Position numbers and translations under genes: made by a program. A DNA stretch of 63,464 bases from Prevotella sp. (GTDB taxonomy: Bacteria > Bacteroidota > Bacteroidia > Bacteroidales > Bacteroidaceae). The notes under the pieces are model-generated. The model was not told where the DNA came from. It was given only the letters and a program-made list of their open reading frames with translations, and searched no databases. Of this stretch, positions 10,546 to 58,433 are shown piece by piece (within the stretch, counting starts at the first letter, position 1; each line of letters opens with the position of its first letter). The stretch covers positions 1 through 63,464 of the forward strand of contig JAFZNI010000339.1 of the NCBI GenBank assembly GCA_017551005.1. The letters are read 5' to 3'.

Positions 10546-10574
10546 AAAAGCCCTGCCAGTCGGCAGGGCTTTTT
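10546..10574. terminator. Bidirectional intrinsic terminator between convergent genes
   Basis: aaaaGCCCTGCC-agtc-GGCAGGGCttttt. Confidence 0.88.
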
Positions 10575-10588
10575 GTTATTAGTCATCC

Positions 10589-13500
10589 TTACGGGTTAGA
10601 CGGCTCGCTACCACCACCGGATTCACCGCCACCAGTCGATGTTGCTGGGGCCTCTTTTCCGATGACAACGTTCGTGTTACCCGTCACCTCGGCAGCATTA
10701 CCACCGCCGTAGACGTTTCCACGAATGTCAACACCAAGGACGGGAAGATAGTAAATTGTATTGGCTTTAGCCTTACCGGATGCCTTAGTGTACACATACG
10801 GACTTGCTGTAGTACCGTCACCTGAGCGAGTGTAGTAGTTACTCACATCAGTCTCATCAGCAACGATACGCTCTAACTTCACATACGACTCAGTACCGAT
10901 GAGCACATTCGTATTGCCATTCACTTTAGCCGCATTACCGCCACCGAAGACATTACCGATGACACCGATCTTGTTCTTCTCGTGAGGATAGAGTTGAACC
11001 GGTTTACCGTCCAATGTCTTTGTTTCTCCGTCGTAGTCCTGTCCGCCACCATCAACCAAACCAACGTTGATGCTGACCGTCGGGTTACCGTTCACGACAG
11101 CATTCTCACCCCTACCGCCACCATAGATGGTACCGATACTGGTAAAGGCACGGACATTGACCCTCGGCGACTGGTAGTCAGCGCCGTAACTTGCAGGTAA
11201 AGTATATGGTGCTTCATTTCCACCGCCATAAAGTTCGCCGATAATGACAGGCGTACCACAAGTCGGACACTCTTCGATATTCACTTCGACATAGCCTTCA
11301 ATCTTACCATCTGACTTGTTACCGCCATACACATGTTCAAACTTACCGCTGGTGATCGTCAGACTGACATCGTTACCGACATCTGCCTTACGTGCTCCGG
11401 CATAGACTTCGCCAATCCAGGAGTCAGGCATACAACGCAGGACAATCTCTGCGCCACCCTCCATGACGGCCTCGTTTCCGCCACCATAGAGTTCACCGAC
11501 TTCCAATATATCACAAGGATCAATAGTCGCCCCTGTTTCGTCTGACGTCAGAGTCGTTATGGAAGCACCGTTACGGATATCACCCAAACTATTACTGCCG
11601 CCGAAGACACTATTGACCTTTCCGGCCTTCAGTTGAATGATGGCTATCTTTGTCTTATCATCTACTACATTTCCATCTACGACGCCAATACCGTATGGTG
11701 TTCCATCTGTACGGAAGCCGACATTAGCACCAGGATTCTTTGGTTCTCCTTCCTCGGTCTTACCATAGCCGCCACCGAACACCTTATCAATAATCTTAGT
11801 TCCGTTGATGAGCACATCCGTACCAGGTGTAGAAGCACCATAACCGCCACCATAGACCTCTTGGATGCTCGTCAGGTTACAGCCTTCGATGATGACTTCG
11901 GCACTCTGCCTTGCATCGGCAGGCACATAGTCAGCACTCTTACCACCGCCAAAGACAGACGTCACATCGTAACCATGCGAATGGCCAGCAGAAACCGTCT
12001 TAAACACATGTACTTTGGTGTGTCCCTTGGGCGTTCCGTTCACGTTGTTACAGCCGAATACGCTGCCCTTTACCACACAATTGTCACTGGCAGTCGTCTT
12101 GTTCAGTTCCACCGTAACGTCACCATAGACAAGAGCCGCAGTAGTGGCATCACCTAATCCGCCACCATAGACATTACGGTTGATAGTACCGTTATGCAGA
12201 TTGACGGCAGTGGTATATGTCGTAGAGGTATTCGTGTCATCGGCCCATGTATTAGTGGAAGTTTCCCAGTTTCCTTTGTTCGTGTCAGCAAGCGAACCGC
12301 CGCCATAGACATCTTCGGTCACCGTGCCACCGTTCATGTTGACCTCCACACTACCCAAGGTAATACCTCTTTCGCCACCACCAAAGACAGAACCATTGAC
12401 AGTGGCGTCTTCTGCGATGGTCACAATGGGATGGCTGGTCAATGCCAGCGTCTCCAAGAAGTCACGGTAAGCAGCCGCATCTGGATAATACCTCCAAATA
12501 TAGGTGGGATCATCTTCATAGGGACTCCACAAACTAGCATCACTTGGTGCGTTTGTAGCGAGTTGCATACTCTTGGACCTATTAACACCATCAGCCACAA
12601 AGGCAGGCGTGACACCCTTGCAGGCACCAAAGACGTTGTGTCCTGTGCCATCGGCTCCAATCTTAGCATGGTCTTGGATAGTGACGGTACATTTTCCACC
12701 GCTCAACGGTTTTGTCGGTAATCCTGCTGGAACTTCGAATCTTCCCACCGAAGCAATCTCACCACCGCCATAGACGCTACCTCCGACCAGAGCAACGCCT
12801 TGAACGGTAACCGTAGCGTCGCCACGTACCAGAGCGGAGTAGCCATGTGTCATGACACCTGCACCGGCACCGAAGACGTTGCCTATGATGTTAGGCTTGC
12901 TTCCTGTAACATTTTCATTTGCTGTTCCTATTGTCACAGTCGCATCATTCTCCACGCGGCCTACTTGACCACCGCCATAGACGGTACCTTTAATCGTGCC
13001 GTCAGTGATGGTGACATTGGTCTTGTATGCCATGGCTTTCTCACACCACCATGTGTCTTCAAGACCCTTGCCCGCACCATAGACATTACCATTAGCGTAT
13101 GTACCATCATCACTCACTGCGACACCAGTACCTATAGTACCGCCATTGATAGTGACATTACAAACGCCGGTGCTGTTCCACTCGTAATTTGTACCTGGGT
13201 TAGCCTCGTTGGTCCACTTATAATTGTAATCGGCACTCTTGACAATGGTACCCACGTCGCCCAACTGACCGCCGCCATAGACGTTGCCCTTAACCGTACC
13301 GTTATTGATGGTGACGGTAGCGTTGCCTCTCACTCGTCCGGCTTCAGCAAATGTTGCAAGACCGAGTCCGCCGCCAAAGACGTTGCCGCCAGCGCTTCCT
13401 GTTCCAATCGTACCACCTGCTATCGTTACAGAAGTGTTGTGCTGTACAAATCCACTCTCACTACCGCCATAGACACTACCATTGACTTGGGCGCTTCCAT

Positions 13501-32262: not shown

Positions 32263-32303
32263 ATTATATATTCTTATTCTTTATTCCGTCTTCCGTCTTA
32301 CAT

Positions 32304-36332: not shown

Positions 36333-36358
36333 TAGTGCAATTCGTATAATTTATGCTC

Positions 36359-39300
36359 TTACTTAATCACTGTTACGCTGCCCTTCTGACCATCTGCCGA
36401 GCGCTTGATGTAAAGGCCCTTCTTTGTGGGTTTGCCATTGAGGCGACGACCGTCGATGGTGTACCAGACTTCATCCAATTGTGAACTGTGAATTGTGAAT
36501 TGTACATCATCAATGTCGGTAGTCCTACCAACGACAATGCGCAGTCGGGCACCTGACGTACTGCTTAGGGGATTCGGGTTGTCGAAATAGTAAGTGCCTG
36601 TTGGCAAAGTACCATCAGAGGTAAGTACGAACCTTCCTTTGTAGAACATATAAACCTGACCGAAGCCTACTTCCATGCCACCTGTTCCCGTTACTTTTTT
36701 CAATATATTTGAACTGACGTCTGCTGGTGTAGTAGGCGTGAATTCTGATACGGTGATCCTGTTATTAATTGCACCATTAGCATTTGGAGTTCCATCCAAG
36801 TCATCCAACAACAATACAGGCACACCCTCTGGTGCATAGTCTATCTTCAGCAGATCCACTGCGTTTTCAGTAACACCCGTCACGAGATAAACGCTCTTTC
36901 CCGTTATCACCATATTCTTAGGAGCTTGGTAAGGTGCCACGTCTTTTACATCCTCATCAGTAGCTGTAGGTGTTTCTCCTGTGTCATAGAAATCTAAGTT
37001 CAAAGCTATCACCTGTGCCGAACCCGAATAATTGTTTATTCCAGTGATAGTCCACACATCATTCTCATCTTTCGAAGCTGTAAAATCAGAACCTGCAAGA
37101 GTATTATCACCATCCTGCACTGTGACATCACTACCATCTATAGTGATTACAATACCTGTAGCAGGAATGGAACCATCTCCAATGCTCTTTGCCGTCACTT
37201 CCAATGTACCGTTGGTATATGTGATGTTGTAGCTCGCAGTCACGTTATTATTAGTGCCATTCTTGATGACTGCTGCACTGGGTACGTTGTTGCTACTGCC
37301 AGCAACTGTCTGACTACCTGTTACGGTAACACTCTCAATGGCATCGCCCTCAGCAAGTGCTGTATTTGTATAGCTGTTTTTGGTCAAAGCCGTGCCATCA
37401 TAAGTCTTTGTATCGCTGTCAGCGGTAATGGTCAGAGTTTTCTGAGTCACCTCCAGTGTACCGTTGGTATATGTGATATTGTAACTCGCTGTCACATTCT
37501 CATTGTTTCCGTTCTTGATGACTGCTGCACTGGATACATTGTTGCTACTGCCAGCAACTGTCTGACTACCTGTTACGGTAACACTCTCAATGGCATCGCC
37601 CTCAGCAAGTGCTGTATTTGTATAGCTGTTTTTGGTAAGAGCCGTGCCATCATAAGTCTTTGTATCGCTGTCAGCAGTGATGGTCAGAGCTTTCTGAGTC
37701 ACCTCCAGTGTACCGTTAGTATATGTGATGTTGTAGCTCGCAGTCACGTCCTCGTTGCTTCCGTTCTTGATGACTGCTGCACTGGGCACGTTATTACTAG
37801 TACCAGCGACTGTCTGACTACCTGTTACGGTAACGCTCTCAATGACATCGCCCGTAGCAAGTGCAGTATTTGTATAACTGTTTTTGGCAAGAGCCGTGCC
37901 GTCATAGACCTTTGTATCGCTACCAGCAGTGATGGTCAGAGGTTTCTGTGTCACCTCCAGTGTACCATTCACATATTTAATGGTGTAACTTGATGTAACG
38001 TCCACATTAGAGGCGTTCTTGATGACTGCTGCGCTGGGTACATTGTCGCTCGTGCCTGCAACAGTCTGACTGCCAGTAATGGTGACACTCTCAATGGTAT
38101 GACCTGTTTGTAACCCCGCAACGGTATAAGTGTCCTTTGTCAGCGGTGTGCCGTCATACACCTTAGTCTCGCTGTCAGCTGTAATAGTAACAACAATATT
38201 CGTTACTTCAAGTGTACCGTTAACAGTGGTCACCAAGTAGTTGCCAACCGCAGTTTCTTCTCCGGTAGTCACAGCCACACCATCCACTGTGGCTATCACA
38301 TTAGGCTGGGTTCCCACATTGGTGATGGTACTTCCTTCTGTCATGACGACGGTGAAGGTATGCATATCGCCTTCCTCTAAGGCAGAGGCAGTGAAGCCGG
38401 GCTCGGTCAGTGCCGAGCCGTTATAAACTTGAGAGGCATCTTTGGCTGTGATAGTTACAGCCTTTGCATTAATGGTTAGCGTACCGTCAGCAGTAGTAAC
38501 CAAGTAGTTTCCGACCTCCGTTGGAGTGTCTGTAGTCACAGCAGTGCCATCCACTGTGGCTATCACATTAGGCTGTGTGCCCACATTGGTGATGGTACTT
38601 CCTGCTGTCATGACGACGGTGAAGGTATGCGTATCGCCTTCCTCTAATGCCGAGGTGTCGAAACTTGTCTCGGTCAGTGCCGCCCCATTATACGTTTTTG
38701 AGGCACTGCCAGCTGTGATAGTTACAGCCTTTGCACTAATGGTTAGGTTAGCCCCCGTATATGAGATAGTGTAATTGTTACCAGCAGTCAGCGTCCCCTG
38801 GTTGATGGCATAAGTGCCGACATTCTCACCATTTTCACGAGACAACGAGCCAGTGAAAACATCTTCTCCGACAAGATCATCTGAGGTATAAGTCAATACA
38901 GGATCTGCCTCACCATAGGTCTTTGACTTCGCTTCAGCCGTAACGGTTATTGCCTTTGCGCTAATGGTTAGGTCGGCCCCCGTATATGAGATACTGTAGT
39001 TGCTGCCAGCAGTCAGCGTCCCCTGGTTGATGGCATAAGTGCCGACATCCTCTCCATTTTCACGAGACAACGAGCCAGTGAAAACATCTTCTCCGATAAG
39101 ATCATCTGAGGTATAAGTCAATGCAGGATCTACTTCACCATAGGTTTTTGACTTCGCTTCAGCTGTAACGGTTATTGGCTTTTTGTTTATAGTAAAATCT
39201 CCAGAACCATATACCATATATTCACCACCGGCCTTGTCGGTAATCGTAACAGTATATGTACCAGCATCCTTACACTCTGTGACTTCATTTTCGCCCAGTT

Positions 39301-40891
39301 TATAGCTGACATTATATTCTTCGGGATCAATAGTCGTCTCACCAAATTTCACTTCAGGAACTTGAGTCGTTTTATTGTAATGAGTCGTTCCGTCGTAAGT
39401 AGAAGGGGCAAAAGTCTGAACATATACAATCGTTTGAGTTATCACTCTGGAATCACCCTTTTCGCCTCCAATTGCCCTAACCTTGATGGTCGTTATACCT
39501 TCACTAACACTTGGTTTGTTTGTGGCATTATACTGCGTGCTACCTGTTGTTGGAGTACTTCCATCTGTCGTATAATAGAAAACTGCATCATCTTCACCGT
39601 TGGTTATTGTAATAGTACCATTCTCATCACAAGTCACTATAGGATCAGCCCATAGTTCTTCTATTGTCCAGTGAGCATAGTTATTGTCCGTTCCTCTATC
39701 GTTGTAGATACCGATTTTCATATCGTTGCTAAGGGTAATCTTAGTATAGGTATTCTCACTAGCATTTCCTGGGCTCAAGCTGGCGGACTTATTATAGTAA
39801 TAACTTATTTCCAATTTAGGCATGATGGAATAAGCACTATAACCTGTTCCAATGGCATTCAACACCATGAATTGGAATCTGTTTTCAGTTTCTCCCGTTT
39901 CAGTCCCATCATGCTCATAAAGCCGCAATGAACTAGCTTGCACGTTTCCGTTTGCTGTTCCAGTAAACTTCAAGTATTTGCCAGTAATGGCATTCACAAT
40001 GTAATAATACTTGAGGTTAGGAATGGCATTGTCCGAAGCGGCTTCCACAAAATACCATACTTTTTTATCATCATCGACATCTGAAGTAACGGTAGCGTAT
40101 GGATCCGAATTATCGTCGATGGACATGTAAAATGTGGATCCTTTTGTTGTGGCATTGTGAATATAGAAGTAATGCTTTACTTCGTTGGTAGAATTGGTAA
40201 AAGGATGAGCCCATGCCACAGAGTTCTTTGCCACGAAATTCCACATGGAGTTTGCGTCTGGGGAACCGCCATAGTTGCTAGATTTGAGGTATCTATTCTC
40301 ATAAGGAACATTACCCGATTTCTTATTCACCCAGTAATTACCATTTCCGCTCTTTGGGTATAAAATCCATTCGCCTTCGCTGCCACCGATTGAAAACTTA
40401 TAGGCATCTCCTCCAGAACCAAAACTTGCAATCTTAATTGTATTATCATTTCCAATTGTTCCATCAAGCTTAAGATAATACCCAGTATTTTGGTTGACAA
40501 TATAATAGTATTGGGTGTTACTTTCAGTTCCAGCATCCATAAAATACCACAATGCTTTCAAGTTGGGCATATTGGTGGTGGATACATTCGAGTTATTTGT
40601 GTGAGGAATGGCATAAAATCCATCCGCACCGACAGATTCCATCCAGTAAAGTGTTTCCGTGTGGTTGGTCACATCGTCTTCCGTTGTCAACGTAAAAGGA
40701 TGTTGTCCCCACACACTATTTACTTCCAAGAATAAGGTCAGGAGCAGGGTTACGATGAGACGATTGCAACGCCACACTCCGCCCAAAGGTCGGAGAAATG
40801 TCGTGAGACACGAGCCATGGTCTCGTGAGGCACGAGCCGTCATGTAGTTGTTAGCGTGAAATATCGTCACTATCTTCATATCTTGTGTCAT
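36359..40891 (-). CDS. 1510-aa surface adhesin-like protein: beta-trefoil-like head, CHB_HEX_C/Fn3-like domain, MBG-type stalk repeats, Prevotella-type T9SS C-terminal domain
   Basis: Signal ending VWG|Q; YYYIVN..TG.YLK repeats; FYYTTDGSTPT; SKTYGE.DP MBG-like repeats; WYTIDGRRLNGKPTKKGLYI C-terminus. Confidence 0.82.
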   Translation of the reverse strand: MTQDMKIVTIFHANNYMTARASRDHGSCLTTFLRPLGGVWRCNRLIVTLLLTLFLEVNSVWGQHPFTLTTEDDVTNHTETLYWMESVGADGFYAIPHTNNSNVSTTNMPNLKALWYFMDAGTESNTQYYYIVNQNTGYYLKLDGTIGNDNTIKIASFGSGGDAYKFSIGGSEGEWILYPKSGNGNYWVNKKSGNVPYENRYLKSSNYGGSPDANSMWNFVAKNSVAWAHPFTNSTNEVKHYFYIHNATTKGSTFYMSIDDNSDPYATVTSDVDDDKKVWYFVEAASDNAIPNLKYYYIVNAITGKYLKFTGTANGNVQASSLRLYEHDGTETGETENRFQFMVLNAIGTGYSAYSIMPKLEISYYYNKSASLSPGNASENTYTKITLSNDMKIGIYNDRGTDNNYAHWTIEELWADPIVTCDENGTITITNGEDDAVFYYTTDGSTPTTGSTQYNATNKPSVSEGITTIKVRAIGGEKGDSRVITQTIVYVQTFAPSTYDGTTHYNKTTQVPEVKFGETTIDPEEYNVSYKLGENEVTECKDAGTYTVTITDKAGGEYMVYGSGDFTINKKPITVTAEAKSKTYGEVDPALTYTSDDLIGEDVFTGSLSRENGEDVGTYAINQGTLTAGSNYSISYTGADLTISAKAITVTAEAKSKTYGEADPVLTYTSDDLVGEDVFTGSLSRENGENVGTYAINQGTLTAGNNYTISYTGANLTISAKAVTITAGSASKTYNGAALTETSFDTSALEEGDTHTFTVVMTAGSTITNVGTQPNVIATVDGTAVTTDTPTEVGNYLVTTADGTLTINAKAVTITAKDASQVYNGSALTEPGFTASALEEGDMHTFTVVMTEGSTITNVGTQPNVIATVDGVAVTTGEETAVGNYLVTTVNGTLEVTNIVVTITADSETKVYDGTPLTKDTYTVAGLQTGHTIESVTITGSQTVAGTSDNVPSAAVIKNASNVDVTSSYTIKYVNGTLEVTQKPLTITAGSDTKVYDGTALAKNSYTNTALATGDVIESVTVTGSQTVAGTSNNVPSAAVIKNGSNEDVTASYNITYTNGTLEVTQKALTITADSDTKTYDGTALTKNSYTNTALAEGDAIESVTVTGSQTVAGSSNNVSSAAVIKNGNNENVTASYNITYTNGTLEVTQKTLTITADSDTKTYDGTALTKNSYTNTALAEGDAIESVTVTGSQTVAGSSNNVPSAAVIKNGTNNNVTASYNITYTNGTLEVTAKSIGDGSIPATGIVITIDGSDVTVQDGDNTLAGSDFTASKDENDVWTITGINNYSGSAQVIALNLDFYDTGETPTATDEDVKDVAPYQAPKNMVITGKSVYLVTGVTENAVDLLKIDYAPEGVPVLLLDDLDGTPNANGAINNRITVSEFTPTTPADVSSNILKKVTGTGGMEVGFGQVYMFYKGRFVLTSDGTLPTGTYYFDNPNPLSSTSGARLRIVVGRTTDIDDVQFTIHSSQLDEVWYTIDGRRLNGKPTKKGLYIKRSADGQKGSVTVIK
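37196..39189 (-). repeat. Intragenic tandem domain repeats: 4 x 252 bp, 2 x ~261 bp, 2 x 225 bp
   Basis: Equivalent positions at 37201/37453/37705/37957 and at 38761/38986; protein repeats visible in the translation. Confidence 0.88.
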
Positions 40892-40925
40892 ATCGCAAAT
40901 CCTTCGAAGTTCATCTTATTATCTG

Positions 40926-40957
40926 CAAAAATACGTTTTTTCGGCGAAACAGCCAAA
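40926..40957 (-). promoter_or_regulatory. Bacteroidetes promoter for the 1510-aa gene and downstream genes
   Basis: Minus strand: TTTG (40957-40954), 20-nt spacer, TATTTTTG (40933-40926). Confidence 0.75.
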
Positions 40958-41076
40958 TTATATATATTATTTAATTTTTAAATTATATATTAATTTAATT
41001 ATTTATATGCCCCTTATAGGGGCATTAATTTAATTATTAATTTTTTAATTAACTAACACGCGTGCGACCCGATTTT

Positions 41077-41205
41077 GTTCGGATTATCTTAACGCGTCAT
41101 CCGGATAGTCTCTTCGAGTCGTTCGAATAATCCCTTTACCCTATAAGGAATCATCTCTTTGAGTCGTCCGGATTATCGGAATGCCCCATCGGGATTATCC
41201 CGATG
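41077..41205. repeat. Six degenerate ~22-bp-period repeats ending in a perfect palindrome
   Basis: gttcggattatc-like cores at 41077, 41099, 41121, 41144, 41166, 41188; catcgggat-t-atcccgatg at 41187-41205. Confidence 0.7.
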
Positions 41206-41224
41206 AAGCATAGAGATACCCTCG

Positions 41225-44200
41225 TCATTTCACCGCGAGTTTCTTCATATAGCGGCCATCGGCACTCTGGACGATGTAAACACCTTGGTTGGCAACAAAC
41301 GTCTCGATGGTCTCACCCGGCTGGATGGTGAACGTCTTCAGCGTGATGCCGGCAGGCGTAACAATACGCACGTCGGTGGTGTAGGTGAGCGACGACTCCA
41401 CGACAATCTCGTGCTTCTTCGTGTATATCCTGAGCGTGCCGTAGATCTTACCGTCGCGCGGATCCTTCTCTTCATCGCCACCGATAGAGGAGTCATCGTT
41501 GCCGAAGATAATCTGTTCGACATCACCGCGCGTTCTGGCTCCACTGCCTGCTGCCATGAAGTACGGACGGAACGGAACGGCTGCTACGTCAGCGGTATTC
41601 TTCTTGAAACTGCTACCGTCAGCATTGAGCAGATAGCCTGTACCTGCCTCTATGGTCTTACCCATATAGTTCGGCACGAAGCGGTAGTTATTTGCCGTGA
41701 CAGGTGCCAGTTCGTCATCACTTACACCGATGGTGATGCCTTTATCAGAGGCGAAGGAGATGACCTGCGGTTTGAGTTGGTCAATACCTGAGTGCGTGTA
41801 CTTAGGCACGAACGTGCCGCTGAGGTCGAACTCATAGTAACGGTTGCCTGGGAATCCGACGATGTAAGGTGTACCTGCGCCACTGTAGGGATAGCCGCCA
41901 TAGGTATGCTCATCCCGGTAGTAAGTCTTCTGATACTCGTCTGTATTCTTATCCAGGTATTCGTCGAAACTGTAATAGTAATCCCAGAGGAAGGTGTTCT
42001 CGAACTCCTTCGAACCGCTACCGGCATCAGGCTTACCGAAGGATGCCACAAACGTGTTAGCATCAGTACTGGAGACTGAGCCGCCCTTATACCCGCGGAG
42101 CCAGTACTCGTGGCCCGTGGTACTTCCACTATAGAAGTGGGTAATCTCACCCTTGTCGGACGTGGTGACAAGTTCGGCACTGAACGGCAGGCTCACGGCT
42201 TCCCAGCCCTTCTTGTCGTCGACGTAGTTGTCAGGCGTACGCTGGTACCACATCCGATAGCCTTCGCCCATCGTGTAGCCGATCGGGGCATTGAAGTCCT
42301 GCTTATCGACGAGGTAGTGGTCACGATCAGTGACGAAATTATCGCCCGACTTGAAGATAACATGACCCTTGATGCGCTCGTTGTCGGATGTCGAGACGGC
42401 AGCGATTCTGCGGTAGTTGGATTCATCAATGTCAGCAGTCATCTCATCGTCAGCCTCCTCTACGCATGCAAGATCGCTAAAGTAATTGTCGAGCACGTCG
42501 TGGGTGGCCGCATTGACTGTCACCTCTGGAGCGTATGCCAGGAGGTTCTGCGTCAGATTGACATTGCGGAAGCCTGTCAGGCCGTCGTCATCAAGCAGTG
42601 GCGGGAAGAAGTGCTTTATACCGTCGGTATTTTCGACAAGTCCCTTCTTATAGCCCTTCGACACGTCATTATAACCTGTAAAGTCGATGGCAGTCATATT
42701 CTGGTAAGCAATCTCGCTGGCATCACCCTTCTTTGTCTGTGCAAAGACAGCGTATGGGTTATAGTAGGCCACCTCCATCTTGTTGCTGCGGAAGTAGGCC
42801 GGCGCACGATAGACACGATTGCCGCCGAGAGAGGTCTGGGTACGGGTATCGCTCTTGTTGATGGACGACGGCACATCCTGATGCTCATAGTCAGTCAGGT
42901 GACCATAGTTCAGCACCTGTCCGAAGTAGATATAGTCATCGGGCCAGATGGGATAATAGTAACTCTCGAGTCCCTCATCATACTGACGGATGTTCGTCGT
43001 CTCAGGAATGATGCCATCGGCATAGAAGATGTCACCGTCGGCATAGCGATCCTCAACGTATGTGAACTGTTTGAAGTCGGTGCCATACTTACCCTCCTTC
43101 TTCGTCAGAACGGCATCACCATTGTCGTCGGTACCGTCGACGAAGTAGTTGTAGGTCTGAGGCGTCGTACCCATGTCAGACGTATTGTTGTCGTAATATC
43201 GCTTATGCAGATAATAACCGTTCAGGTTGTAGGCCACCTCACCATTGTAGAAGGCCTTCTCCGGCATCTTGCGCAGACCGTCGCCAGCAGCATAGCCGTT
43301 GGTCTCCGGGTAGTAGCAGTTGAACACCTGCGTGCTGCCATCATCGGCATTAGGATTACCAAAGACTGCCTTCACACCTTCGTCAGGTGTGCCTGTGGTC
43401 TTCACCCAACAGTTAGCCACATAGCCTTCACCTGTGTCAGCCACACCGGCAGAGTTGAACGAGCCCATCACACCAAGGTTATAGACATCACCGCAGAGTT
43501 TATGGATCAGTGAGTTGTTCAGGCCACTGATATAATGGCCGTCACCATGGAGTTTACCCATGAAGCACTCACCATCATTGTTGGCTATCGGCGTCCAAGG
43601 ATTGGCTGTGGTGCTCTCGCGTTCCAAGTCGGTGTTCAGGATGAATTCCAGATACTGGCCACCCTTCATCGGCTGGTTCTTATGCGTGAGGTCGAGCGGC
43701 ATGTGACCGTCGAGTGCTCCGCCACTGATAACCTTCGGGTTACCCTCTGCGTCATTGTTCACGACATACGTCAGATCCATCAGATTCTTGAACAGGTCAA
43801 GACCGTTCTGCGGATTGTCGTCACCACTATAGTCGTTGATGTAGATCTTCGGTTCACGATCCACGTCCTTGTGGTCGATGAAGTAGTGGTTCTCCTTGTC
43901 AGCCATCACCTTAGCCAGGTCGTGGTAGTTGGCCACTGTGAACTGCACGGAGTTCGAATAGGTCTTGCCCAAGTGGGTCTGGGCATAGTAGGCCAGATAG
44001 TAGTCGTTCTGATACCAGTAGAGCGGCGTCACATTATTATAGAAAGGCTGTCCGTTGGTATGCGTGTCGGCATCATTCTGGTTAGAGAAGATCTCCCAGC
44101 CTGAATCTGTCACGCGGAAGGCGCCCTGTGAGACTGTCGGCGGCATGAGACCGACGGTAGTACCCGGCAGGACGACAGACGGATTGCTGAGTTTACCAAT

Positions 44201-47200
44201 CTCTGGCACACCGCTCTTGAACTTGATATGGATATTGACGATGTGACGCTCACTGACCGGCGTGACATTGAGACCTGAGGCATCGCTCTCCTCATATTCA
44301 TAGAGGTAGATGACAGTGATGATCTTCTCCTGACTGAGGTTGTAGATGTCGGACTCGCTCGAGACGTAGAGCGTACTGATCTCCGTAGGCGATGTGCCGT
44401 GGATGACGAAGCCCTGCTGGTAGTTCTTCAACTGTCCGTAGTCCGCCTCACCGATAATCACACCCTTCGGCACTTCCTCACCTATATCATAAGTCGTGCT
44501 GGAGGTACCGGTCTTGATACCCATCGTCGTGACTGGCACACCCTCACCCTTCTCGTTGACGGTATAGGCCTCACGGCAATAGTAGTAGTTTGTGGGTACA
44601 TATTCACCACCCACCTTGTTGGTGTGCGACTCGGTAAAGGTCAGCACATCGACGTTTGTCTTCTGCTGGGCAGTCAGAGACGTATAGAGCGTCTCGTCGA
44701 TCACCTGACCGATCGTGTAAGGAATGTCACCACGCATAAACGCATTGTTGACGACATAGTAGTCACCCGGTTCCTTCACCGTGACAGGCGAGTAGTGGTG
44801 CTTCTCGTTGGGGATATCCTCATAGCGCTCACGTGTCATCCACTTATCCGGATCGGACTCTGGCTTAATCGTTACCGTCGTGCCATTCTCATCAATATAG
44901 GACTTCTGGTCGCCCCTATATTCCGCCTGATAGTCTATAGGCTGTGTGACGGAGTATATCTTCGGACTGTTCGGACCGTCGTACTGCGGCTTGTTTCCGT
45001 AGTTGCTCTCCAGACGATCACTATATGTCGGATCGACAAGCACGTCGAAGGCATCGTAGTTGAAGTCGAAGTTTTCTCGATCCTCCTTCGACATCGAACA
45101 GAAGGTGTCAAGGGCACGGTATGCCTTACCCTCCACGAAGTAAGAACCGCCGTAGAGTCCGGTTTCCGTACAGTAGTAACCGTCGGACAGGTATTCGCTG
45201 AGGAAACTGTTAACCTCTGCATCCGTCCATGAGTTCTTGGCCTTCAGTTTGGTCTTGATCTCGTTGACATCGTCCGTCGAGAGCAACTTACCCGCATAGA
45301 TATAGTCTGTCGTTGAGAACTCGATGAGATTGTTACATACCATAGCCGCCTCCATCTTACCGGTGAGTGCCGTCCACTGAGCATCGGTATAGTTGGACTT
45401 ATAGACGGGCGTACCGGGATAGAGGTGCTGCACCTCATCGCCATTCGCATCCTTCACAGAGTGTTCATCGGTCATGATATAGGCCCGCTCCACCTTGGCC
45501 TGACCCACCTTCTCGCTCGCACTCAGGTTAGGATCAACCTGAGTCATATAGGTGTTGTAAACAGTTCCAAGGACCACCTCGCCCTTCTTGTAGGTGTGCT
45601 GTCCATAGACACCACCCTTGCCGGCCTTCGGCGTAAACGTCGGACCTTCGGTGTACTGACCCTGGCTACCCGATGACTCGTTACTGTACTGCTCCGTACT
45701 GAGACGTTTGCTCTGAGACGGGTCATTCGTCAAGGTGTAGTAGTTGTTCCACACCATCGGGTTGTTGATGTCGTAAGTCAGGACATATCCCGTCTCATGA
45801 CCCAGGTTATTCGACGGGCGGAAGACAAAGTCGAAGGCCACATCCTCATTCTGCTCCACATGGAAGACTGACGGCACTGCCTCAGCGTCCTCACCGTCGA
45901 TCTGCTTCTTGGGTGCGGCATTCCTGAGCCTCAGATACTCGTCGGGCAGCATCACATAGCCCTCGGGATAAGTATTCCCGTTGAGGGTACATTCGGCAAT
46001 GGTGGTATAGGTCTCCTCGACGAACTTCGCCTGGTCGGCCTCATTCAGCACGCGGTACTCCCAATAAGAGATAGGATCGTTAAGTTTGTAACTTATGTTG
46101 TTGGCCTCGAAGTGGTCATCGGCATTCTCGCCGCCCATCTTCATGCCATTCTTGTCGTAGTAAGCATAGTAGTTGGGCTGCACCTCGCGCAAGGTCATCC
46201 TACCGTTGGAGGCAGCAGAGATGGTGAGCGGCAACTCCACCTTCTCGGCGTAGGCGTTGGCCGTGCCGGTATAGGCAGAGATATACTGGTCGTAGACGTA
46301 GATAGAGCCCTTGATGAACCAGTAGTGAGCCGGTGATTTCACATAGCCGTCATTGTAGATACCGCCATTGGGATAACAGTCGTCGACAATCTGCTTGGTG
46401 TTATGGACGAAGTTACCCGAGGTCTCGATACCCTCCAAGTTGCTCTGGTTGTAAGTGAAGTGTCTGTATGTGACGGCAGGAATATTATAGTCAAGGAGAG
46501 TGACCTTACCCCAATCATTGCGTGTCTTCTTACCATGTTGATTCTTGGCATAGACATAGCCACCACCCATACCCTGCATCACATTGATGAGGTCGAGTTC
46601 GATGACACCCGTGACGTAACCCCATTCGTCTGTTGAAGTAGCCTCACCATCCTCACGCTTGATTTCCAGATAGACACCCGATGCAAGAGCCACCTTATTC
46701 AGGCTGGTACCGTTGTTGCGGTACTTGCTCTGCGGATCCTTGGCTTTCCAAGCATAATAGGTCTCGCCGTCGGCATCAATACCGCCGTTAGCCACGTCGG
46801 TCTTGCGAGTGTCCTTGTCACTGTCGAAGAACACGTCGCTGGTCAGGTTACCCAGGTAGTTCACCACGCTGTAGATGCCGAAATAGTTGCCGTGTACGGC
46901 ATCGTCGCCTGTGTCGCCGGCCTGCGTCTTGCGCTGGTTCAGCGACAACTCGCCCACACGGTTAATGGTATAACTGTTATAGTCTGATGCCTTCACACGG
47001 TCCTGGGCACCCTTCAGGACGAGACGGCTACCAAACACGCCGCATAAGTCAGCACGCTGGATGGTATTCATCGGGCGACCGGCATAGCGGCTGCACACAC
47101 CACCCAAATCCCACATGGCCTTCTCTGCGGCATCCATCAGGGCATATTCACCCTCTTCTATCTGATCGTCTGCCTGATAGACCTTTGTGCCTTCAGCCCA

Positions 47201-50200
47201 ATAGATCTTCTCAGTATCCGACAAGGTGTCATACTCAGCCTGGGTGATCTTCTGACCCTTACGATAGGTTGTTTCCGTATCATGATCGGTATGCAGTTGC
47301 CTGCTCTCATAGTACTTATAAACATGCGTCACATTAGTCACATACTTCAACTGGTAGTAGGCTTTCTCACGCTCAGTCAGTGTCTGATAGCCTGTATAGT
47401 CCATCGTCGGGTCAAGGCTATAATAGTCTGTACCATAGTTATCGATATGCAACTCACGGAAACCATCGACGAACGTCAGGTTGCCATCACCATAGATGCC
47501 ACCGATATCATCCGTACCAATCGTAATCAAGTCACGGTTATAGGTATCTCGCACCGACACGGCCGCATTTCCATATACAGTATATGCGTCTGCCGCCACG
47601 TTTTCACTGCCCTCACGGCTGTTACCACCGGCGAAGACGGCGTTATGGATGATGATACCGTCGGTATTATCACCCCTGAAGAGTGTACTCCAATCGGCAG
47701 AAGAGCGAGTCTTGTTGCCCAACTTGTTCAGAGCCTCCACCGGGACATAGGATCCCTTAGAATAGGTGGTACCACCGATAGTGACACCTCCGTCGGCAAA
47801 CACCTGGCAATAGGGCTCTACAACAACACTGCAGTCGAGGGTCAAGCCATTTGCGATGGCACCATTCTTATAATAGAATCCACCACCCTCTGTGGGCATT
47901 CCGTTGGTAAGTTCATCATCACTGACCCTTGGACCGATTTTCTTGCCAATAGCACTATAGACGTATCCTTCGTTACCACCAGCGAACACATTACCATCAC
48001 CGCTGAGGGCACCTGCCTCGGTACCAACCTCACCGCCACGGATATGCACTTCGGTAGAACCAAAGACATAGCCCTTGGAACTGAGGTAGAAAGGAATCTT
48101 GTTCTCATCCTTCATGTACTTCGTACCGTCACCGCCCCAGTTTTCAAAGCCGCGACCGCCACCGAACACATTACGCTTCACATGACCATCGTACAAGACA
48201 GTCTTCGTGCTACCGCCCTTATAGATCTTTGCATCAGCATTGATAATGGCTCCCTCTGTAGGTGCGTCGTCACTCACCGAACCGCGTCCGATAGGGCCTA
48301 TCTCACCGCCACCGTAGAGACAACCTCTCACAGTGCCACCATACATACAAATGTCTGAAGCGTCAGTATAACTGTTAGCCACATATCCACCTCCGAAAAT
48401 ATTACCGCCTTCAGCAAGCAGATTGTCATTAAGAACGGCATCGTCGAGTTCCTCCACATAGTCGTCGTTCTTATAGCGGTAGCCAACATGGCCGTTATTC
48501 ATGGTGACATAGGCCTTACCAAAGATAGAACCACCCTCACCGCCACCGTACACATTACGGGTAACGGCAGGAGCGCCCGTATAGAAATTGTCATCACCGA
48601 CAACTCCAACCACCACATGGGCTTCGGCATCACGGTCATTCACGTTATTAGCCACATTACTGACCTTGCCATCATGATAGCCCACATTACCTTCCCAGCC
48701 GCCGCCATAGACGTTTCGCACCGTACCACCCTTGATATAGGCATTGGCGGTGGCGATGAAGCCAGTCTTACCGACACCGAAGATATCGCATACATCTCCA
48801 GTAGTACCCGCCGCATAAAGGTCTTTCGCAACCGTACCGCCGAGCACGGCAATATAAGTAGAGCCGAACACGCCACCCGTCAAAGGATTCGATGCCGAAC
48901 CATATCCGCCACCGTAGGCATAGCCACCCACCGTGGCACCCTTCTTGATGATGACATTGGTATTGTATCTCTTATAGAATCTTGCCTTCACCTCGTCTGA
49001 GAAACTGCTCAAATCACGATCATCGATCTCTGCTGGTCGAACAAGCGGATTGTTGAGGTTGGTGTATTGATATGGATTATTGGCATTATATACATATCTC
49101 TGAAATTCTCCAATAGGAGCATAATAATCGCCGATAGTCCATGCATCTTTCCATGCTTCTAACCATTCATCCTTATAAGAAGCCTTCAGCGTACCACCCA
49201 CAGTGCCTCCTTCCCATTTATCTGAGGCACCCCAATACTCATCTTCATTGGCCACCATTTCTGCAGGCTGGGTGCTATAGAGTTGCAGGTACTTCTGTAC
49301 ACTCTCGGCATTGAGCACATTACCCAACTCGCCGCCACCATAGACCTCATAGACATTGGCACCTTCTTCCAGGTTCACCTCGGTATATTCCGCCCATGTA
49401 TATTCACCACGGCCAGCCCCAAAAATCTTGCCGGTATAATTATTATCCTTAAGCACCGGTGCGGAGATATTAACCTTGGCGTAAAGCGTGCGACGCACGT
49501 TGTTGTTACCGCCATAGATGGCACCGTTCACACGGGCATCTCCACTCTGGTAGTTCACGTTCGACTCATAGACATCACAGGGCGGGAGGATCTTCATACC
49601 ATACGCTCCACCGAAGATGTTATTGATTTTGATGGTAGACTTTTTGTTAGACTTTGCCGGCACATTGACAACAGTACGGCGGGTGACGCCTTCCTCAAAA
49701 CTACCGCCATAAGCGGCAGCCACCTTTCCACGCATCAGGTCGATAATGGCAGACGCCTCGTTGGGATCGAAGCGTTCTCCACCATCCTTGCCGTCCTTAA
49801 ATGTTTCTTCGGCTTTATAACTCATACCGAGACCATTATAGGCACCTGCACCAAAGATTTCCAGATTAGCGAAATTATCAATGTTGTCGGGAATGTCGAT
49901 AAGCACATAACTGTGATCCTGCAACTTGTCACCATCACGGTCGCCCGAATAACCCTCTCCGCTACCGAAGACTTTTTCGATATGATTTTGGTCGTTCGTG
50001 TTGGCTCTGATATTGACGAAAGTGTTGTGGAGATAGGGCTTCTTCAATTTACCATCCTTATCCTTCTGGACACGGGCTATAATAGCAGCATCTTTATAAT
50101 CATAGCAGCCATAACTGCCACCGAAGATACGATCCACCCTACCCTGAGTATATTCCATGTAGGCCTTGACCTTTTTGACCTGCTCCTTGTAGGTATTATT

Positions 50201-53173
50201 CACCAGGTCACTGACTTCACTACGGATGCGGCCCGTGAAATCTGCATTATTCTCACCTAAGACACTGCCGCCCAAGTCGTTGCCGCCATAGATATGGTCA
50301 CGGATCCAAGGGAATCCAGACTTGGTCGTCGTTCCTTCTGTCCATTGACCCACGTAGGTCTCCGTATGTCCGATGATATCAGCATTACATGAGCCTGCGA
50401 AAGAATTGAAGATACGGCCATTACCGAGATAGACATGGGTGTTACCGGCAATGAGGCCCTCGTAGGCACCACCGTAGAGATACTCACACTCAGCCATATC
50501 TTGGCTGTCTCCTGCAGCGCGCCTTGCCACACCAGGAATCGTACTGGTGTTACCAAGGGTGATATAGGTGCTGTATTTCTCGTCGTATCCGTATTTTAGA
50601 TCAGAAGAATTCGAACTTTCGTCGGCTTTGCCGATGGCACCCATCTCGCCACCGCCGAAGACTTGGAAGGCATAGCCCTTGTTCAGGTTGATGGTGGTAC
50701 TGCCCCATATCTCGGAGTCGCCGCCATAGCCGCCACCGAACACGCTGAGAGCAGAGGCAAGCGCATCTACGCCCTGCTGAGAGAGGATGACACCGGTATT
50801 ACGCGTCGAGATGTTATAGTCTGCATTCTCTGCATTCTCGTATATCTTATCTCCCTCATCCGTCACATCAAAGATTATGTCGCGCTCATGGATAGAGGCA
50901 TTCAGGTTGATGACCACATTACCGTTCACATGGCCTCTTAAGTAGCAGCCGCCATAGATGTTTCCGCCTAAGAGACGACGGTCGAGGTCATCGGCATTGC
51001 TCTTGCCAGATCCTGACGTGACAGGAGCGACATCCTTACCTGTAGAGGCACTAACCGTGTTCCATTCCAACTGGCGACTACCATTGTCAAGAATATAGGT
51101 AGGATTACCATTCGCATCCTTGACAATATCATAGTTTCCATCTCTTTGCACTTTCCAACGCATGGGCCGAATCTTCAGACCACCGAAGTTCAGGATGAGT
51201 TTGTTGCCATTCGTGTCAGCATCACCCAATATACCGCCCAAATATTGCGTATTATAGGCAGTCTCATAGACATTGGCCTCGTTACTGCCACCCACAACCT
51301 TTTCATAGATCACCACTTTGTCGTTGAAGTCAACAGTAATGGCATCGTTTCTCCTCATACTGCCCACGTTTCCTCCACAATAGAAAGAGCCGAAATAGGT
51401 GGAATACGGTTCATATTTTCCAACGTCATCGAAGACCACACGGGGCATGACGTCCATCGTCACACCGTTCATGTACTCGTCAAACTGATCCTTTTGGGTC
51501 AGGTCCATCGAGTTAAACCTCTTAGTTGAGCCGGTGACGGTACTCCGTAATGTACGCAGAACACCTTCCGCTATTCCCTTTGAATCATCTTTTTCATCAG
51601 TCTTCACCATGTTGGCACCATTGTTGCCCAGGAAAACCTTGTCGGCAATGACATAGGATCCGATCTTAAGTTCTGCCGCCTTGGTAGCATCGTCGTTGTG
51701 TAGCGTTGCGCTGTTGCCACCACAGTAGATGGCTCCACCGATGACGGTATTGGTTATCTTTCCTGTCGTTGCATCCTTATTTCCTACCACACGGATGGAA
51801 ACAGACTCGGCATTGGGGCGGAACTGGTTAAGCGCCTGAACAGACTCCAATCCGGTAAAAGCGGATCCTGCAGCCTTTCCTAATATCTTATTGACATCAT
51901 AATAGAAGTCCTTGTATGTCTCTAACGCGCCTAACTCTGCATTGTCGGTATAGGCATACGAGCCATTACCACCACCATAGACATCACCCTTGATACTGCT
52001 ATGGATACCCACGGCATTACCCCCATAGATGTTGCCGGAGATATCATTACCGCCATAGACATTGGTAATGTCTCCTCCCGTAATCAGCACGCGGGCTGAA
52101 TAGCCAGCAGGGAAATATGTACCATCAATGGTCTCCTCGGCAATAGTATTCTTATCTGGGTTCACGTCAGCCATACGGCATCCGCCAAAGACATTCTCAA
52201 TCGTCAGTTTGTTAGACTGGGTCGGATTGATAGACAAAAGAATACCATTATCATAGGTCATAGCGCCCTGGTTACCACCGCTGTAGATATCACGAATGAC
52301 ACCTGCCTGCAGATTCCATTTCGGACGGATGGCCATCGGTGCCTTGTTGTTTCCGCCAAAGACACGGGCAAAGTTAAAAGCATAACTGGTCAGGTTGCTC
52401 TGGTAAGTTGACAATCCCACCCTTTGTGCCAAATCTTGCAATTGTTTTTGGCCTGCGGTAGATGTCGGGTCTGCAGGCCATACATTTGTCTGCGACAGCA
52501 CAGGGCTCTCATTGTCAATACAGATGGTGGTGTTGGCCGTTACTGTCACGTTATTACCACCGCCATAGAGGTGAGCGATGCAACCACCCATAATTTCCAA
52601 ATACGTCTTGCCGAGTTCGGGCAGTTTGACCTTCTCGTATGTCGTACCGTCTATGGTGGTATTATATGTACCCGCTTCTTCTGTATTTTTGGTGTAGGTA
52701 TAGTCACCATTGCCTCCACCATAGAGACTACCAATCACAAGGCTTAAGCGATCTTTTGCATCTTGCGTCACTGGTGTCGGACTTGTGCGGACAAAGGCAT
52801 TCCAGGAGTTGTTAATAGCGTTTTCTCCCTCCTTCTTCAAGTCGTCAGCAGGAATAAGATTCGTACCTACATCATTTGGATTAATCTTGGTACCTACCGT
52901 TCCTGCGATATCATTTCCACCATAGACTGAGGTGATGAAGATATTGTCGGAAGCATGATCGCCATCGATATTCACGAAGGCACTGCCGCCCACGTCAGCC
53001 AATCGGGCACCGCCATATACATTATTCAGGTCACCAGCACGCACGGTGACAGAGGTGCTACCATCGACAACACCTTCATTACCGCCGCCATAGACATTGC
53101 CGCTAATGGTAATCTGGGCCTGCATCAAGGATGCAAACAAACTACACAGTACTATGGTAAATATCCTTTTCAC
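41225..53173 (-). CDS. Giant 3982-aa secreted protein: N-terminal GNVYGGG repeats, central Tyr-rich repeats, C-terminal T9SS-type domain
   Basis: GTG start; signal LMQA|Q followed directly by ITISGNVYGGGN; ends VRIVTPAGITLKTF...GVYIVQ...KKLAVK, resembling a T9SS CTD. Confidence 0.87.
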   Translation of the reverse strand: MKRIFTIVLCSLFASLMQAQITISGNVYGGGNEGVVDGSTSVTVRAGDLNNVYGGARLADVGGSAFVNIDGDHASDNIFITSVYGGNDIAGTVGTKINPNDVGTNLIPADDLKKEGENAINNSWNAFVRTSPTPVTQDAKDRLSLVIGSLYGGGNGDYTYTKNTEEAGTYNTTIDGTTYEKVKLPELGKTYLEIMGGCIAHLYGGGNNVTVTANTTICIDNESPVLSQTNVWPADPTSTAGQKQLQDLAQRVGLSTYQSNLTSYAFNFARVFGGNNKAPMAIRPKWNLQAGVIRDIYSGGNQGAMTYDNGILLSINPTQSNKLTIENVFGGCRMADVNPDKNTIAEETIDGTYFPAGYSARVLITGGDITNVYGGNDISGNIYGGNAVGIHSSIKGDVYGGGNGSYAYTDNAELGALETYKDFYYDVNKILGKAAGSAFTGLESVQALNQFRPNAESVSIRVVGNKDATTGKITNTVIGGAIYCGGNSATLHNDDATKAAELKIGSYVIADKVFLGNNGANMVKTDEKDDSKGIAEGVLRTLRSTVTGSTKRFNSMDLTQKDQFDEYMNGVTMDVMPRVVFDDVGKYEPYSTYFGSFYCGGNVGSMRRNDAITVDFNDKVVIYEKVVGGSNEANVYETAYNTQYLGGILGDADTNGNKLILNFGGLKIRPMRWKVQRDGNYDIVKDANGNPTYILDNGSRQLEWNTVSASTGKDVAPVTSGSGKSNADDLDRRLLGGNIYGGCYLRGHVNGNVVINLNASIHERDIIFDVTDEGDKIYENAENADYNISTRNTGVILSQQGVDALASALSVFGGGYGGDSEIWGSTTINLNKGYAFQVFGGGEMGAIGKADESSNSSDLKYGYDEKYSTYITLGNTSTIPGVARRAAGDSQDMAECEYLYGGAYEGLIAGNTHVYLGNGRIFNSFAGSCNADIIGHTETYVGQWTEGTTTKSGFPWIRDHIYGGNDLGGSVLGENNADFTGRIRSEVSDLVNNTYKEQVKKVKAYMEYTQGRVDRIFGGSYGCYDYKDAAIIARVQKDKDGKLKKPYLHNTFVNIRANTNDQNHIEKVFGSGEGYSGDRDGDKLQDHSYVLIDIPDNIDNFANLEIFGAGAYNGLGMSYKAEETFKDGKDGGERFDPNEASAIIDLMRGKVAAAYGGSFEEGVTRRTVVNVPAKSNKKSTIKINNIFGGAYGMKILPPCDVYESNVNYQSGDARVNGAIYGGNNNVRRTLYAKVNISAPVLKDNNYTGKIFGAGRGEYTWAEYTEVNLEEGANVYEVYGGGELGNVLNAESVQKYLQLYSTQPAEMVANEDEYWGASDKWEGGTVGGTLKASYKDEWLEAWKDAWTIGDYYAPIGEFQRYVYNANNPYQYTNLNNPLVRPAEIDDRDLSSFSDEVKARFYKRYNTNVIIKKGATVGGYAYGGGYGSASNPLTGGVFGSTYIAVLGGTVAKDLYAAGTTGDVCDIFGVGKTGFIATANAYIKGGTVRNVYGGGWEGNVGYHDGKVSNVANNVNDRDAEAHVVVGVVGDDNFYTGAPAVTRNVYGGGEGGSIFGKAYVTMNNGHVGYRYKNDDYVEELDDAVLNDNLLAEGGNIFGGGYVANSYTDASDICMYGGTVRGCLYGGGEIGPIGRGSVSDDAPTEGAIINADAKIYKGGSTKTVLYDGHVKRNVFGGGRGFENWGGDGTKYMKDENKIPFYLSSKGYVFGSTEVHIRGGEVGTEAGALSGDGNVFAGGNEGYVYSAIGKKIGPRVSDDELTNGMPTEGGGFYYKNGAIANGLTLDCSVVVEPYCQVFADGGVTIGGTTYSKGSYVPVEALNKLGNKTRSSADWSTLFRGDNTDGIIIHNAVFAGGNSREGSENVAADAYTVYGNAAVSVRDTYNRDLITIGTDDIGGIYGDGNLTFVDGFRELHIDNYGTDYYSLDPTMDYTGYQTLTEREKAYYQLKYVTNVTHVYKYYESRQLHTDHDTETTYRKGQKITQAEYDTLSDTEKIYWAEGTKVYQADDQIEEGEYALMDAAEKAMWDLGGVCSRYAGRPMNTIQRADLCGVFGSRLVLKGAQDRVKASDYNSYTINRVGELSLNQRKTQAGDTGDDAVHGNYFGIYSVVNYLGNLTSDVFFDSDKDTRKTDVANGGIDADGETYYAWKAKDPQSKYRNNGTSLNKVALASGVYLEIKREDGEATSTDEWGYVTGVIELDLINVMQGMGGGYVYAKNQHGKKTRNDWGKVTLLDYNIPAVTYRHFTYNQSNLEGIETSGNFVHNTKQIVDDCYPNGGIYNDGYVKSPAHYWFIKGSIYVYDQYISAYTGTANAYAEKVELPLTISAASNGRMTLREVQPNYYAYYDKNGMKMGGENADDHFEANNISYKLNDPISYWEYRVLNEADQAKFVEETYTTIAECTLNGNTYPEGYVMLPDEYLRLRNAAPKKQIDGEDAEAVPSVFHVEQNEDVAFDFVFRPSNNLGHETGYVLTYDINNPMVWNNYYTLTNDPSQSKRLSTEQYSNESSGSQGQYTEGPTFTPKAGKGGVYGQHTYKKGEVVLGTVYNTYMTQVDPNLSASEKVGQAKVERAYIMTDEHSVKDANGDEVQHLYPGTPVYKSNYTDAQWTALTGKMEAAMVCNNLIEFSTTDYIYAGKLLSTDDVNEIKTKLKAKNSWTDAEVNSFLSEYLSDGYYCTETGLYGGSYFVEGKAYRALDTFCSMSKEDRENFDFNYDAFDVLVDPTYSDRLESNYGNKPQYDGPNSPKIYSVTQPIDYQAEYRGDQKSYIDENGTTVTIKPESDPDKWMTRERYEDIPNEKHHYSPVTVKEPGDYYVVNNAFMRGDIPYTIGQVIDETLYTSLTAQQKTNVDVLTFTESHTNKVGGEYVPTNYYYCREAYTVNEKGEGVPVTTMGIKTGTSSTTYDIGEEVPKGVIIGEADYGQLKNYQQGFVIHGTSPTEISTLYVSSESDIYNLSQEKIITVIYLYEYEESDASGLNVTPVSERHIVNIHIKFKSGVPEIGKLSNPSVVLPGTTVGLMPPTVSQGAFRVTDSGWEIFSNQNDADTHTNGQPFYNNVTPLYWYQNDYYLAYYAQTHLGKTYSNSVQFTVANYHDLAKVMADKENHYFIDHKDVDREPKIYINDYSGDDNPQNGLDLFKNLMDLTYVVNNDAEGNPKVISGGALDGHMPLDLTHKNQPMKGGQYLEFILNTDLERESTTANPWTPIANNDGECFMGKLHGDGHYISGLNNSLIHKLCGDVYNLGVMGSFNSAGVADTGEGYVANCWVKTTGTPDEGVKAVFGNPNADDGSTQVFNCYYPETNGYAAGDGLRKMPEKAFYNGEVAYNLNGYYLHKRYYDNNTSDMGTTPQTYNYFVDGTDDNGDAVLTKKEGKYGTDFKQFTYVEDRYADGDIFYADGIIPETTNIRQYDEGLESYYYPIWPDDYIYFGQVLNYGHLTDYEHQDVPSSINKSDTRTQTSLGGNRVYRAPAYFRSNKMEVAYYNPYAVFAQTKKGDASEIAYQNMTAIDFTGYNDVSKGYKKGLVENTDGIKHFFPPLLDDDGLTGFRNVNLTQNLLAYAPEVTVNAATHDVLDNYFSDLACVEEADDEMTADIDESNYRRIAAVSTSDNERIKGHVIFKSGDNFVTDRDHYLVDKQDFNAPIGYTMGEGYRMWYQRTPDNYVDDKKGWEAVSLPFSAELVTTSDKGEITHFYSGSTTGHEYWLRGYKGGSVSSTDANTFVASFGKPDAGSGSKEFENTFLWDYYYSFDEYLDKNTDEYQKTYYRDEHTYGGYPYSGAGTPYIVGFPGNRYYEFDLSGTFVPKYTHSGIDQLKPQVISFASDKGITIGVSDDELAPVTANNYRFVPNYMGKTIEAGTGYLLNADGSSFKKNTADVAAVPFRPYFMAAGSGARTRGDVEQIIFGNDDSSIGGDEEKDPRDGKIYGTLRIYTKKHEIVVESSLTYTTDVRIVTPAGITLKTFTIQPGETIETFVANQGVYIVQSADGRYMKKLAVK

Positions 53174-55510: not shown

Positions 55511-55517
55511 TTCTTAT

Positions 55518-57359: not shown

Positions 57360-57373
57360 TTATCACTAATCTA

Positions 57374-58432: not shown

Positions 58433-58433
58433 C

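Follow-up and report, generated by a model that had tools for sequence, protein, structure and literature searches.

Giant beta-solenoid proteins of a Prevotella operon that may stack through a shared terminal rung into a polar surface fibre

The DNA analysed here (the window) is a 63,464-nucleotide stretch of contig JAFZNI010000339.1 of a Prevotella sp. genome (GCA_017551005.1). On its minus strand it carries three open reading frames (ORFs) for very large proteins of 1342, 6897 and 3982 residues, which a preliminary description made from the sequence alone took for the tip, shaft and base of a modular surface fibre, built head to tail from beta-solenoids with uncapped, matching ends. The coordinates and terminal sequences that it gave proved exact, and by eye each protein carries its own hydrophobic signal peptide. 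The three genes, with the short terminal repeat units that we call connector rungs, lie as follows.

10589..31282, minus strand: shaft gene, encoding a 6897-residue Sec-signal protein whose ~139 solenoid rungs form about five super-modules in tandem, with a connector rung at both ends and no C-terminal sorting domain (CTD)
10658..10735, minus strand: shaft C-terminal connector rung (residues 6850-6875), for which in-register stacking on the base N-terminal rung is predicted
31094..31162, minus strand: shaft N-terminal connector rung (residues 41-63), just after the signal peptide
32304..36332, minus strand: tip gene, 1342 residues, with a C-terminal beta-solenoid finishing in a connector rung and no CTD
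32313..32378, minus strand: tip C-terminal connector rung (residues 1319-1340)
41225..53173, minus strand: base gene, encoding a 3982-residue type IX secretion system (T9SS) cargo, with a GTG start
53042..53116, minus strand: base N-terminal connector rung (residues 20-44), the first residues past the predicted signal cleavage
41228..41407, minus strand: base T9SS type A sorting domain

Exploring the three sequences for their repeat, we found its loose form, [VILAF][YF][GA][GA][GSCA], 132 times in the shaft, six times in the tip and 26 times in the base, versus means of 2.8, 0.3 and 1.0 in 300 shuffles (maxima 9, 2 and 5), respectively. The strict form G[ND]V[YF]GGG, which had been put forward as common to all three, occurs 27 times in the shaft but only once in the tip and twice in the base. 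The loose repeat thus lies far over chance, and most of the rungs are marked by degeneracy and insertions. Pfam and NCBIfam hold no family covering the repeat, the shaft or the body of the base, a PDB sequence search gave no match, and a full-text literature search, with subscription papers and supplements outside its scope, found no description of the family or the motif. The tip opens with an Ig-like part (by eye), followed by an IgA1-protease-N/BACOVA_03286-like beta-helix (residues ~150-455), a conserved core and the C-terminal beta-solenoid; the mature base opens with the connector rung and runs as a beta-solenoid to about residue 1900, followed by a conserved non-repeat C-terminal half and the CTD.

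The connector is a compact rung of the VYGGGNxAxV type, 23 residues long. Of 120 shaft homologues, 117 have it as their last rung; as first rung it stands in 81 of 82 shafts and in 108 of 120 base homologues, and 114 of 120 tip homologues finish in it; internally it accounts for 926 of 13403 rungs (7%) in shafts and 41 of 2563 (2%) in bases. These counts were made on unselected match lists in which the window's shaft and tip were counted once each; the rows of the shaft alignment were picked by their end pattern, so that this alignment is no evidence for conservation. Between terminal rungs of whatever class the identity is 50-56%, while internal rungs next to each other reach 24%, and the ends therefore look interchangeable. 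Homologues of the C-terminal rung within the shaft (residues 990, 1735, 3234 and 5260) are each followed by more rungs. Across 26 loci, some of them cut by contig or fetch ends and three frameshifted (G077, G243 and G165:C93), the rung proteins fall into three classes, namely bases (from rung to CTD), tips (from variable head to rung) and shafts (from rung to rung), with one base, one to three tips and zero or one shaft per intact locus. This grammar is kept in the divergent loci G249, G129 and G219 despite unrelated shafts or heads; G129 has a base and a tip only, and the gene order in G219 is tip, shaft, base. Shaft length ranges between strains from none to 11,866 residues, the longest being a single ORF (G148:C104, 35247-70847) with about 234 rungs (~110 nm), and the tip heads vary between strains as well, carrying ricin-lectin, galactose-binding, Ig and Fn3 domains. 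Three loci have two or three alternative tip genes per base (G197:C11 38415-61740, G213:C18 260-13707 and G148:C104 27066-35226), which suggests that tips compete for one connector. Two other kinds of ending were seen. In the shafts P0409, P0422, P0469 and G146:C4 (43090-61923) the last rung is a variant and precedes a small domain, Ig-like and by eye similar to BACON, which may be a second mode of docking, and in the shaft or tip proteins P0365, P0368, P0380, P0416, P0441, P0452, P0463 and P0474 a low-complexity tail with a conserved terminal N(A/V)ATE(S/A)..R(S/T) follows the last rung.

Fusions in the order tip-shaft-base, proposed earlier as a check on the fibre, were found for its first half. 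Tip and shaft form a single gene in 13 of the 26 loci and are separate in G146, G148, G159, G249, G219 and the window; among 120 giant homologues 25 are tip-fused, 81 start with the rung and 14 have other heads. A paralogue in the same genome (C113) likewise holds tip-like and shaft-like sequence within one ORF; it belongs to a second copy of the system spread over contigs C128, C328, C303, C113 and C315, their linkage being assumed, and near its position 710 an in-frame stop, from assembly error or decay, interrupts the repeat region. Two fused junctions (the 2456-residue protein of G197, and P0205) retain a single compact or hybrid tip/shaft rung. The second half of the order was not found, as base modules occur in 0 of 120 giants and 0 of 130 further representatives (0/250), and none of 80 loci has a shaft-base fusion; one of the searches spanned 878-2505 residues, too little to reveal long fusions. 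We also considered whether the split genes are an assembly artefact or one broken gene and ruled this out, since every part starts with a signal peptide of its own and other loci, as well as 81 of the 120 homologues, show the same split. Contigs of the reads run X2, possibly the source sample itself, match across the tip stop and the shaft start.

To characterize the ends structurally, we modelled the base (residues 20-1000) and the tip (residues 150-1342) with AlphaFold2. The models (predicted local distance difference test (pLDDT) 89.7 and 90.7, respectively; predicted template modelling score 0.91 for both) show, as judged from their secondary structure, a strand as the first element of the base and as the last element of the tip, with no terminal helix, in agreement with the claim that these ends are uncapped; the terminal blocks of the monomer models have a pLDDT of 80-96. 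Base and tip are predicted to fold as open-ended beta-solenoids, and the known structures closest to the two models are beta-solenoids as well. Co-folding of the last 341 residues of the shaft with the first 395 of the base, another check proposed at the outset, yielded in-register stacking with a score of 0.91, versus 0.00 for the best of three controls; of 157 solved complexes 116 attain the mark used, as do 2 of 215 mismatched pairs, and the mark is only roughly valid here, our own alignments having been supplied. The runs share at least 98% of their contacts, with a partner pLDDT of 85. Shaft residues 6849-6878 are predicted to lie on base residues 20-47 in exact register, V on V, Y on Y and I on I, while the artificial cut ends of both fragments stayed unused in the interface.

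Examining the C-terminal tails, we found that the base matches the type A CTD family TIGR04183 with 23.3 bits at a cut-off of 23, a marginal but real match. The tails of 16 of 19 base homologues matched at E<=0.1, six of them over the cut-off. None of 13 tip and shaft tails matched TIGR04183 (the locus tails being cut four residues past the last rung), consistent with the earlier assignment of a T9SS-like CTD to the base only, and where tested the tail of the base or of the neighbouring 1510-residue protein had no match in any of 250 shaft-family proteins. The genome encodes sprA, porU and porV, all over cut-off. The T9SS transports folded proteins and requires a C-terminal domain (PMC9251779, PMC10202324). 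Together, the tip-shaft fusions, the uncapped models and the shaft-base joint give strong computational support to the order and geometry tip-shaft-base. From these computations we conclude, with a probability of roughly 0.7, that tip, shaft and base stack in register on one terminal rung into a polar surface fibre that is likely exported via its T9SS-tagged base; the head-to-tail joining of the giants is in itself a somewhat surer conclusion. With at least 139 + 31 rungs at 4.8 Å per rung, the proposed fibre would be ~90 nm long.

Upstream of the base lie a DUF3575 gene and pilin-like lipoprotein genes, conserved surroundings that the preliminary description had passed over. The other features of the locus are the following.

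53180..54304, minus strand: 374-residue fimbrillin-like lipoprotein, immediately 5' of the base; candidate pilus-base adaptor
54311..60440, minus strand: four further pilin-like lipoproteins (399, 613, 352 and 668 residues), that of 352 Mfa2-like and that of 399 weakly FimA-like
60437..61069, minus strand: DUF3575 outer-membrane barrel gene, the operon's first gene
36359..40891, minus strand: 1510-residue MBG_2/Fn3_assoc adhesin, accessory, without connector rungs
31279..32262, minus strand: HATPase-DUF4325 gene (327 residues), a passenger between tip and shaft
61067..61097, minus strand: promoter consensus 5' of the pilin-base operon
40926..40957, minus strand: second promoter consensus, 5' of the 1510-1342-327-6897 block
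10546..10574, minus strand: terminator-like GC hairpin and T run, past the shaft stop codon

Transcription runs from DUF3575 through the lipoproteins of 668, 352, 613, 399 and 374 residues to the genes for 3982, 1510, 1342, 327 and 6897 residues, and the chromosomal order 3982 - 1510 - 1342 - 327 - 6897 differs from the proposed fibre order. The promoter sites fit a consensus that we take to be of Bacteroidota type. Among 80 loci, 75 have a homologue of the 374-residue lipoprotein as the immediate upstream neighbour of the base; in three loci no upstream gene was called. Mfa_like_1 was matched in 10 of 74 homologues of this gene and Mfa2 in 10 of 50 homologues of the 352-residue one; the FimA match of the 399-residue lipoprotein is weak, a BF1861 match among the upstream pilin-like genes has an E of 0.003, and pilin-family matches were found in 0 of 39 homologues of the 668-residue lipoprotein. 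The upstream genes thus include matches to lipoprotein pilins of the FimA/Mfa families; the lipoproteins have an invariant Cys and a conserved Arg and by sequence look like type V pilins. At the C-terminus of the 374-residue family, a conserved PTYLYVLSDPDLDNP motif replaces the typical donor strand, and PTYLYVLSDPDLDNP is a candidate docking site for the base.

Of 251 genomes sampled from the family, 30 (~12%) contain the shaft C-terminal module and 29 the base N-terminal module; both occur together in 28, the shaft only in two, the base only in one and neither in 220, in a count in which kin are not independent. The tip core was found in 24 of the 251. Named relatives are rumen and gut Prevotella, Prevotellaceae and Bacteroidaceae, with Xylanibacter brevis ATCC 19188 and Prevotella sp. 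tc2-28 and tf2-5 as cultured carriers; the base was found in one of 300 genomes searched across the order, and the shaft module in 0 of 300 searched across the phylum. The system is real, intact and conserved.

The genes between the giants are less constant. A homologue of the 1510-residue adhesin occupies the matching position in two of 15 related loci; its N-terminal part is similar to the heads of some fused tips, and its short tail is of Prevotella type by eye and is missed by TIGR04183. The gene for the HATPase with STAS-like DUF4325, which has a GC content of 43% and overlaps the shaft start codon, has no homologue in the 15 related loci. The corresponding gaps of related operons hold other passengers, by eye toxin-antitoxin-like, Rpn-like, HU-like and transposase-like, so that the gaps look like hot spots of insertion. 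Phase-variation elements were considered for these gaps and rejected, as the gaps carry unrelated passenger genes and no common recombinase was recognized by eye.

We envisage assembly of the fibre as follows. Every giant would be taken across the inner membrane by Sec and have its N-terminal rung bared when the signal is cleaved off, and the C-terminal rung of the next subunit would dock there by parallel beta-sheet augmentation. The stack, polar like one giant polypeptide, would then be led through SprA by the CTD of the base. Since a tip-shaft-base stack has the polarity of a single chain ending in a CTD, such co-export behind the base is the simplest reading, and we consider the odds for it about even; in the alternative, export takes another route and docking occurs outside. 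The base would then be fixed on a type V pilus tip via the 374-residue lipoprotein, or on lipopolysaccharide by PorU. The absence of shaft-base fusions suggests a need to produce or position the base by itself, for instance on a pilus tip in the manner of Mfa5, and we lean slightly towards such Mfa5-like mounting on the co-encoded pilus. The fibre would likely hold exchangeable lectin and Ig heads off the cell for adhesion.

Several points weigh against this picture. The controls of the complex prediction were unrelated proteins and not open solenoids, so the predictor may extend any open solenoid, and the modelling covers the shaft-base joint, one of three junctions. The terminal regions also served as queries for the homologue sets, and of the 130 further representatives 23 lack the compact rung at their end, being either truncated or of a second end type; in some (P0409, P0422, P0469, P0272 and P0338) an Ig or Fn3 domain lies past the last rung. 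A simple split-gene view expects some shaft-base fusions among the 250 proteins, where there are none. With both its ends open, a shaft could form polymers while still in the periplasm, no inhibitor gene being evident, and we found no paper showing CTD-less cargo carried through the T9SS.

In a rival account, tip and shaft leave the cell on their own, through the DUF3575 barrel or pilus pathway or because their C-terminal rung is a T9SS signal that goes unrecognised, and attach to the base once outside, in the way of CsgA on CsgB. Assembly outside sidesteps periplasmic polymerisation, conserved DUF3575 and pilin-like genes lie upstream, there are CTDs of a non-canonical kind (type C; PMC10202324), and the hidden Markov model that finds no CTD on tip and shaft likewise misses the short tail of the 1510-residue protein. 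Most tails past the last rung have, however, fewer than 30 residues and leave no room for a folded CTD, the C-terminal rung is taken up in the predicted interface, and tip and shaft, unlike type V pilins, have no lipoprotein signal; we regard this route to the same fibre as possible but unlikely. That tip and shaft remain in the periplasm as a structural polymer agrees with a Sec signal and no CTD, but their strain-variable heads with lectin and Ig domains are typical of surface adhesins and both are always co-encoded with a T9SS cargo bearing the matching rung, leaving this a very slight chance.

Other explanations concern the compact rung itself. It might be a self-capping or folding-nucleus rung of separate rod adhesins with no mutual binding, given that terminal repeats of solenoids are often special, that most beta-solenoids are protected against edge aggregation (PMC10192328, PMC6891781) and that 7% of internal positions in shafts carry the compact rung. 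Caps would differ between N- and C-faces, however, and here one sequence serves both; ends facing a head or CTD lack the compact rung, natural fusions place the tip C-end beside the shaft N-end in one chain, and the in-register interface scores 0.91 versus 0.00. As it would also leave the export of the untagged giants unexplained, we consider self-capping improbable. We give still less weight to an exchange like donor-strand complementation, in which one of two equivalent terminal rungs loses out to the other and is displaced or trimmed, leaving a single rung at each joint. The fused junctions described above do hold one compact or hybrid rung, and the locus codes for pilins of a kind that uses strand exchange (PMC7835359); recombination within a shared motif also yields one rung at fusions, the monomer models show each of the two rungs folded, the complex shows them stacked, and no conserved cleavage site was seen.

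Comparing the proposed fibre with known systems, we find its geometry to work like that of curli and its setting like an mfa operon, and yet the giants fail the sequence tests for curli, type V pilins, RTX adhesins, autotransporters and bactofilins. Foldseek matched neither the base nor the tip model at E<=0.001. The top VIA match of the base model is CsgA of Pontibacter R15.5 (PDB 8c50; Z 10.4, root-mean-square deviation (rmsd) 10.0, 353 aligned), and curli (CsgA/CsgB) share with the giants, in models only, open-edged beta-solenoids, head-to-tail beta-sheet augmentation and a cell-bound subunit (PMC10192328). Unlike curli, the giants and the genome lack the curlin repeat PF07012 (E. coli control positive), QxGxxN is counted 0 times, and the subunits have 1,300-11,900 residues with loop insertions, separate tip, shaft and base roles and a T9SS-tagged base. 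No CsgG/E/F genes lie in the locus, and CsgG was not found in the genome, which is 81% complete. Porphyromonas gingivalis mfa1-5 offers the same succession of lipoprotein pilin genes and one large T9SS cargo with a possible pilus-tip position like that of Mfa5 (PMC7835359), but the base is a ~4,000-residue beta-solenoid without a vWF domain (0 Pfam families), and the untagged giants with matching rungs after it have no mfa counterpart; unlike type V pilins, the giants have predicted solenoid folds and neither lipobox cysteine nor pilin Pfam match. Region IV of the Marinomonas primoryensis adhesin MpIBP (PDB 3p4g) is a two-sheet roll similar to the tip C-terminal part (Z 11.7, rmsd 3.1, 249 aligned) and the base (Z 9.2), and its rung pattern XGTGND-XUXU-GGXUXG-XUX resembles that of the giants (PMC6891781). 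The giants, however, have no GTGND, six GGxGxD in the 6897 residues of the shaft, no RTX Pfam match and no type I secretion signal, and MpIBP is a single chain where a multi-subunit stack is proposed here. The tip head is closest to BACOVA_03286 (Z 19.4). Bactofilins (PDB 6ria; Z 7.1-8.2, rmsd 1.6-2.3 over 82-85 residues) stack uncapped beta-helices end to end (10.1101/617639), but they are small, cytoplasmic, non-polar homopolymers, whereas the giants have signal peptides, no bactofilin Pfam match and a predicted polar heteromeric joint. The long beta-helical stalks of autotransporter and two-partner adhesins (Hap, Ag43, TibA and FHA) resemble the base with Z 8-9.5 (TibA 9.5); there one chain makes one stalk, and the giants match no barrel or two-partner secretion domain. 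That the fibre represents a new class of appendage, with a universal 23-residue connector, CTD-led threading of a chain through the T9SS, type V pilus-tip mounting, repeatable shafts and swappable tips, is a tentative suggestion that we hold with some doubt.

If the fibre exists as proposed, it would exemplify the joint export of cargo without a CTD through the T9SS, on which we found no paper, and its short, portable, polar rung joining folded solenoids would be a useful part for protein design. The proposal gives a testable account of the way in which untagged proteins of very large size could get to the surface of rumen Prevotella and, if true, would add a further fibre type to the few bacterial appendages, in abundant fibre-degrading bacteria of the gut.
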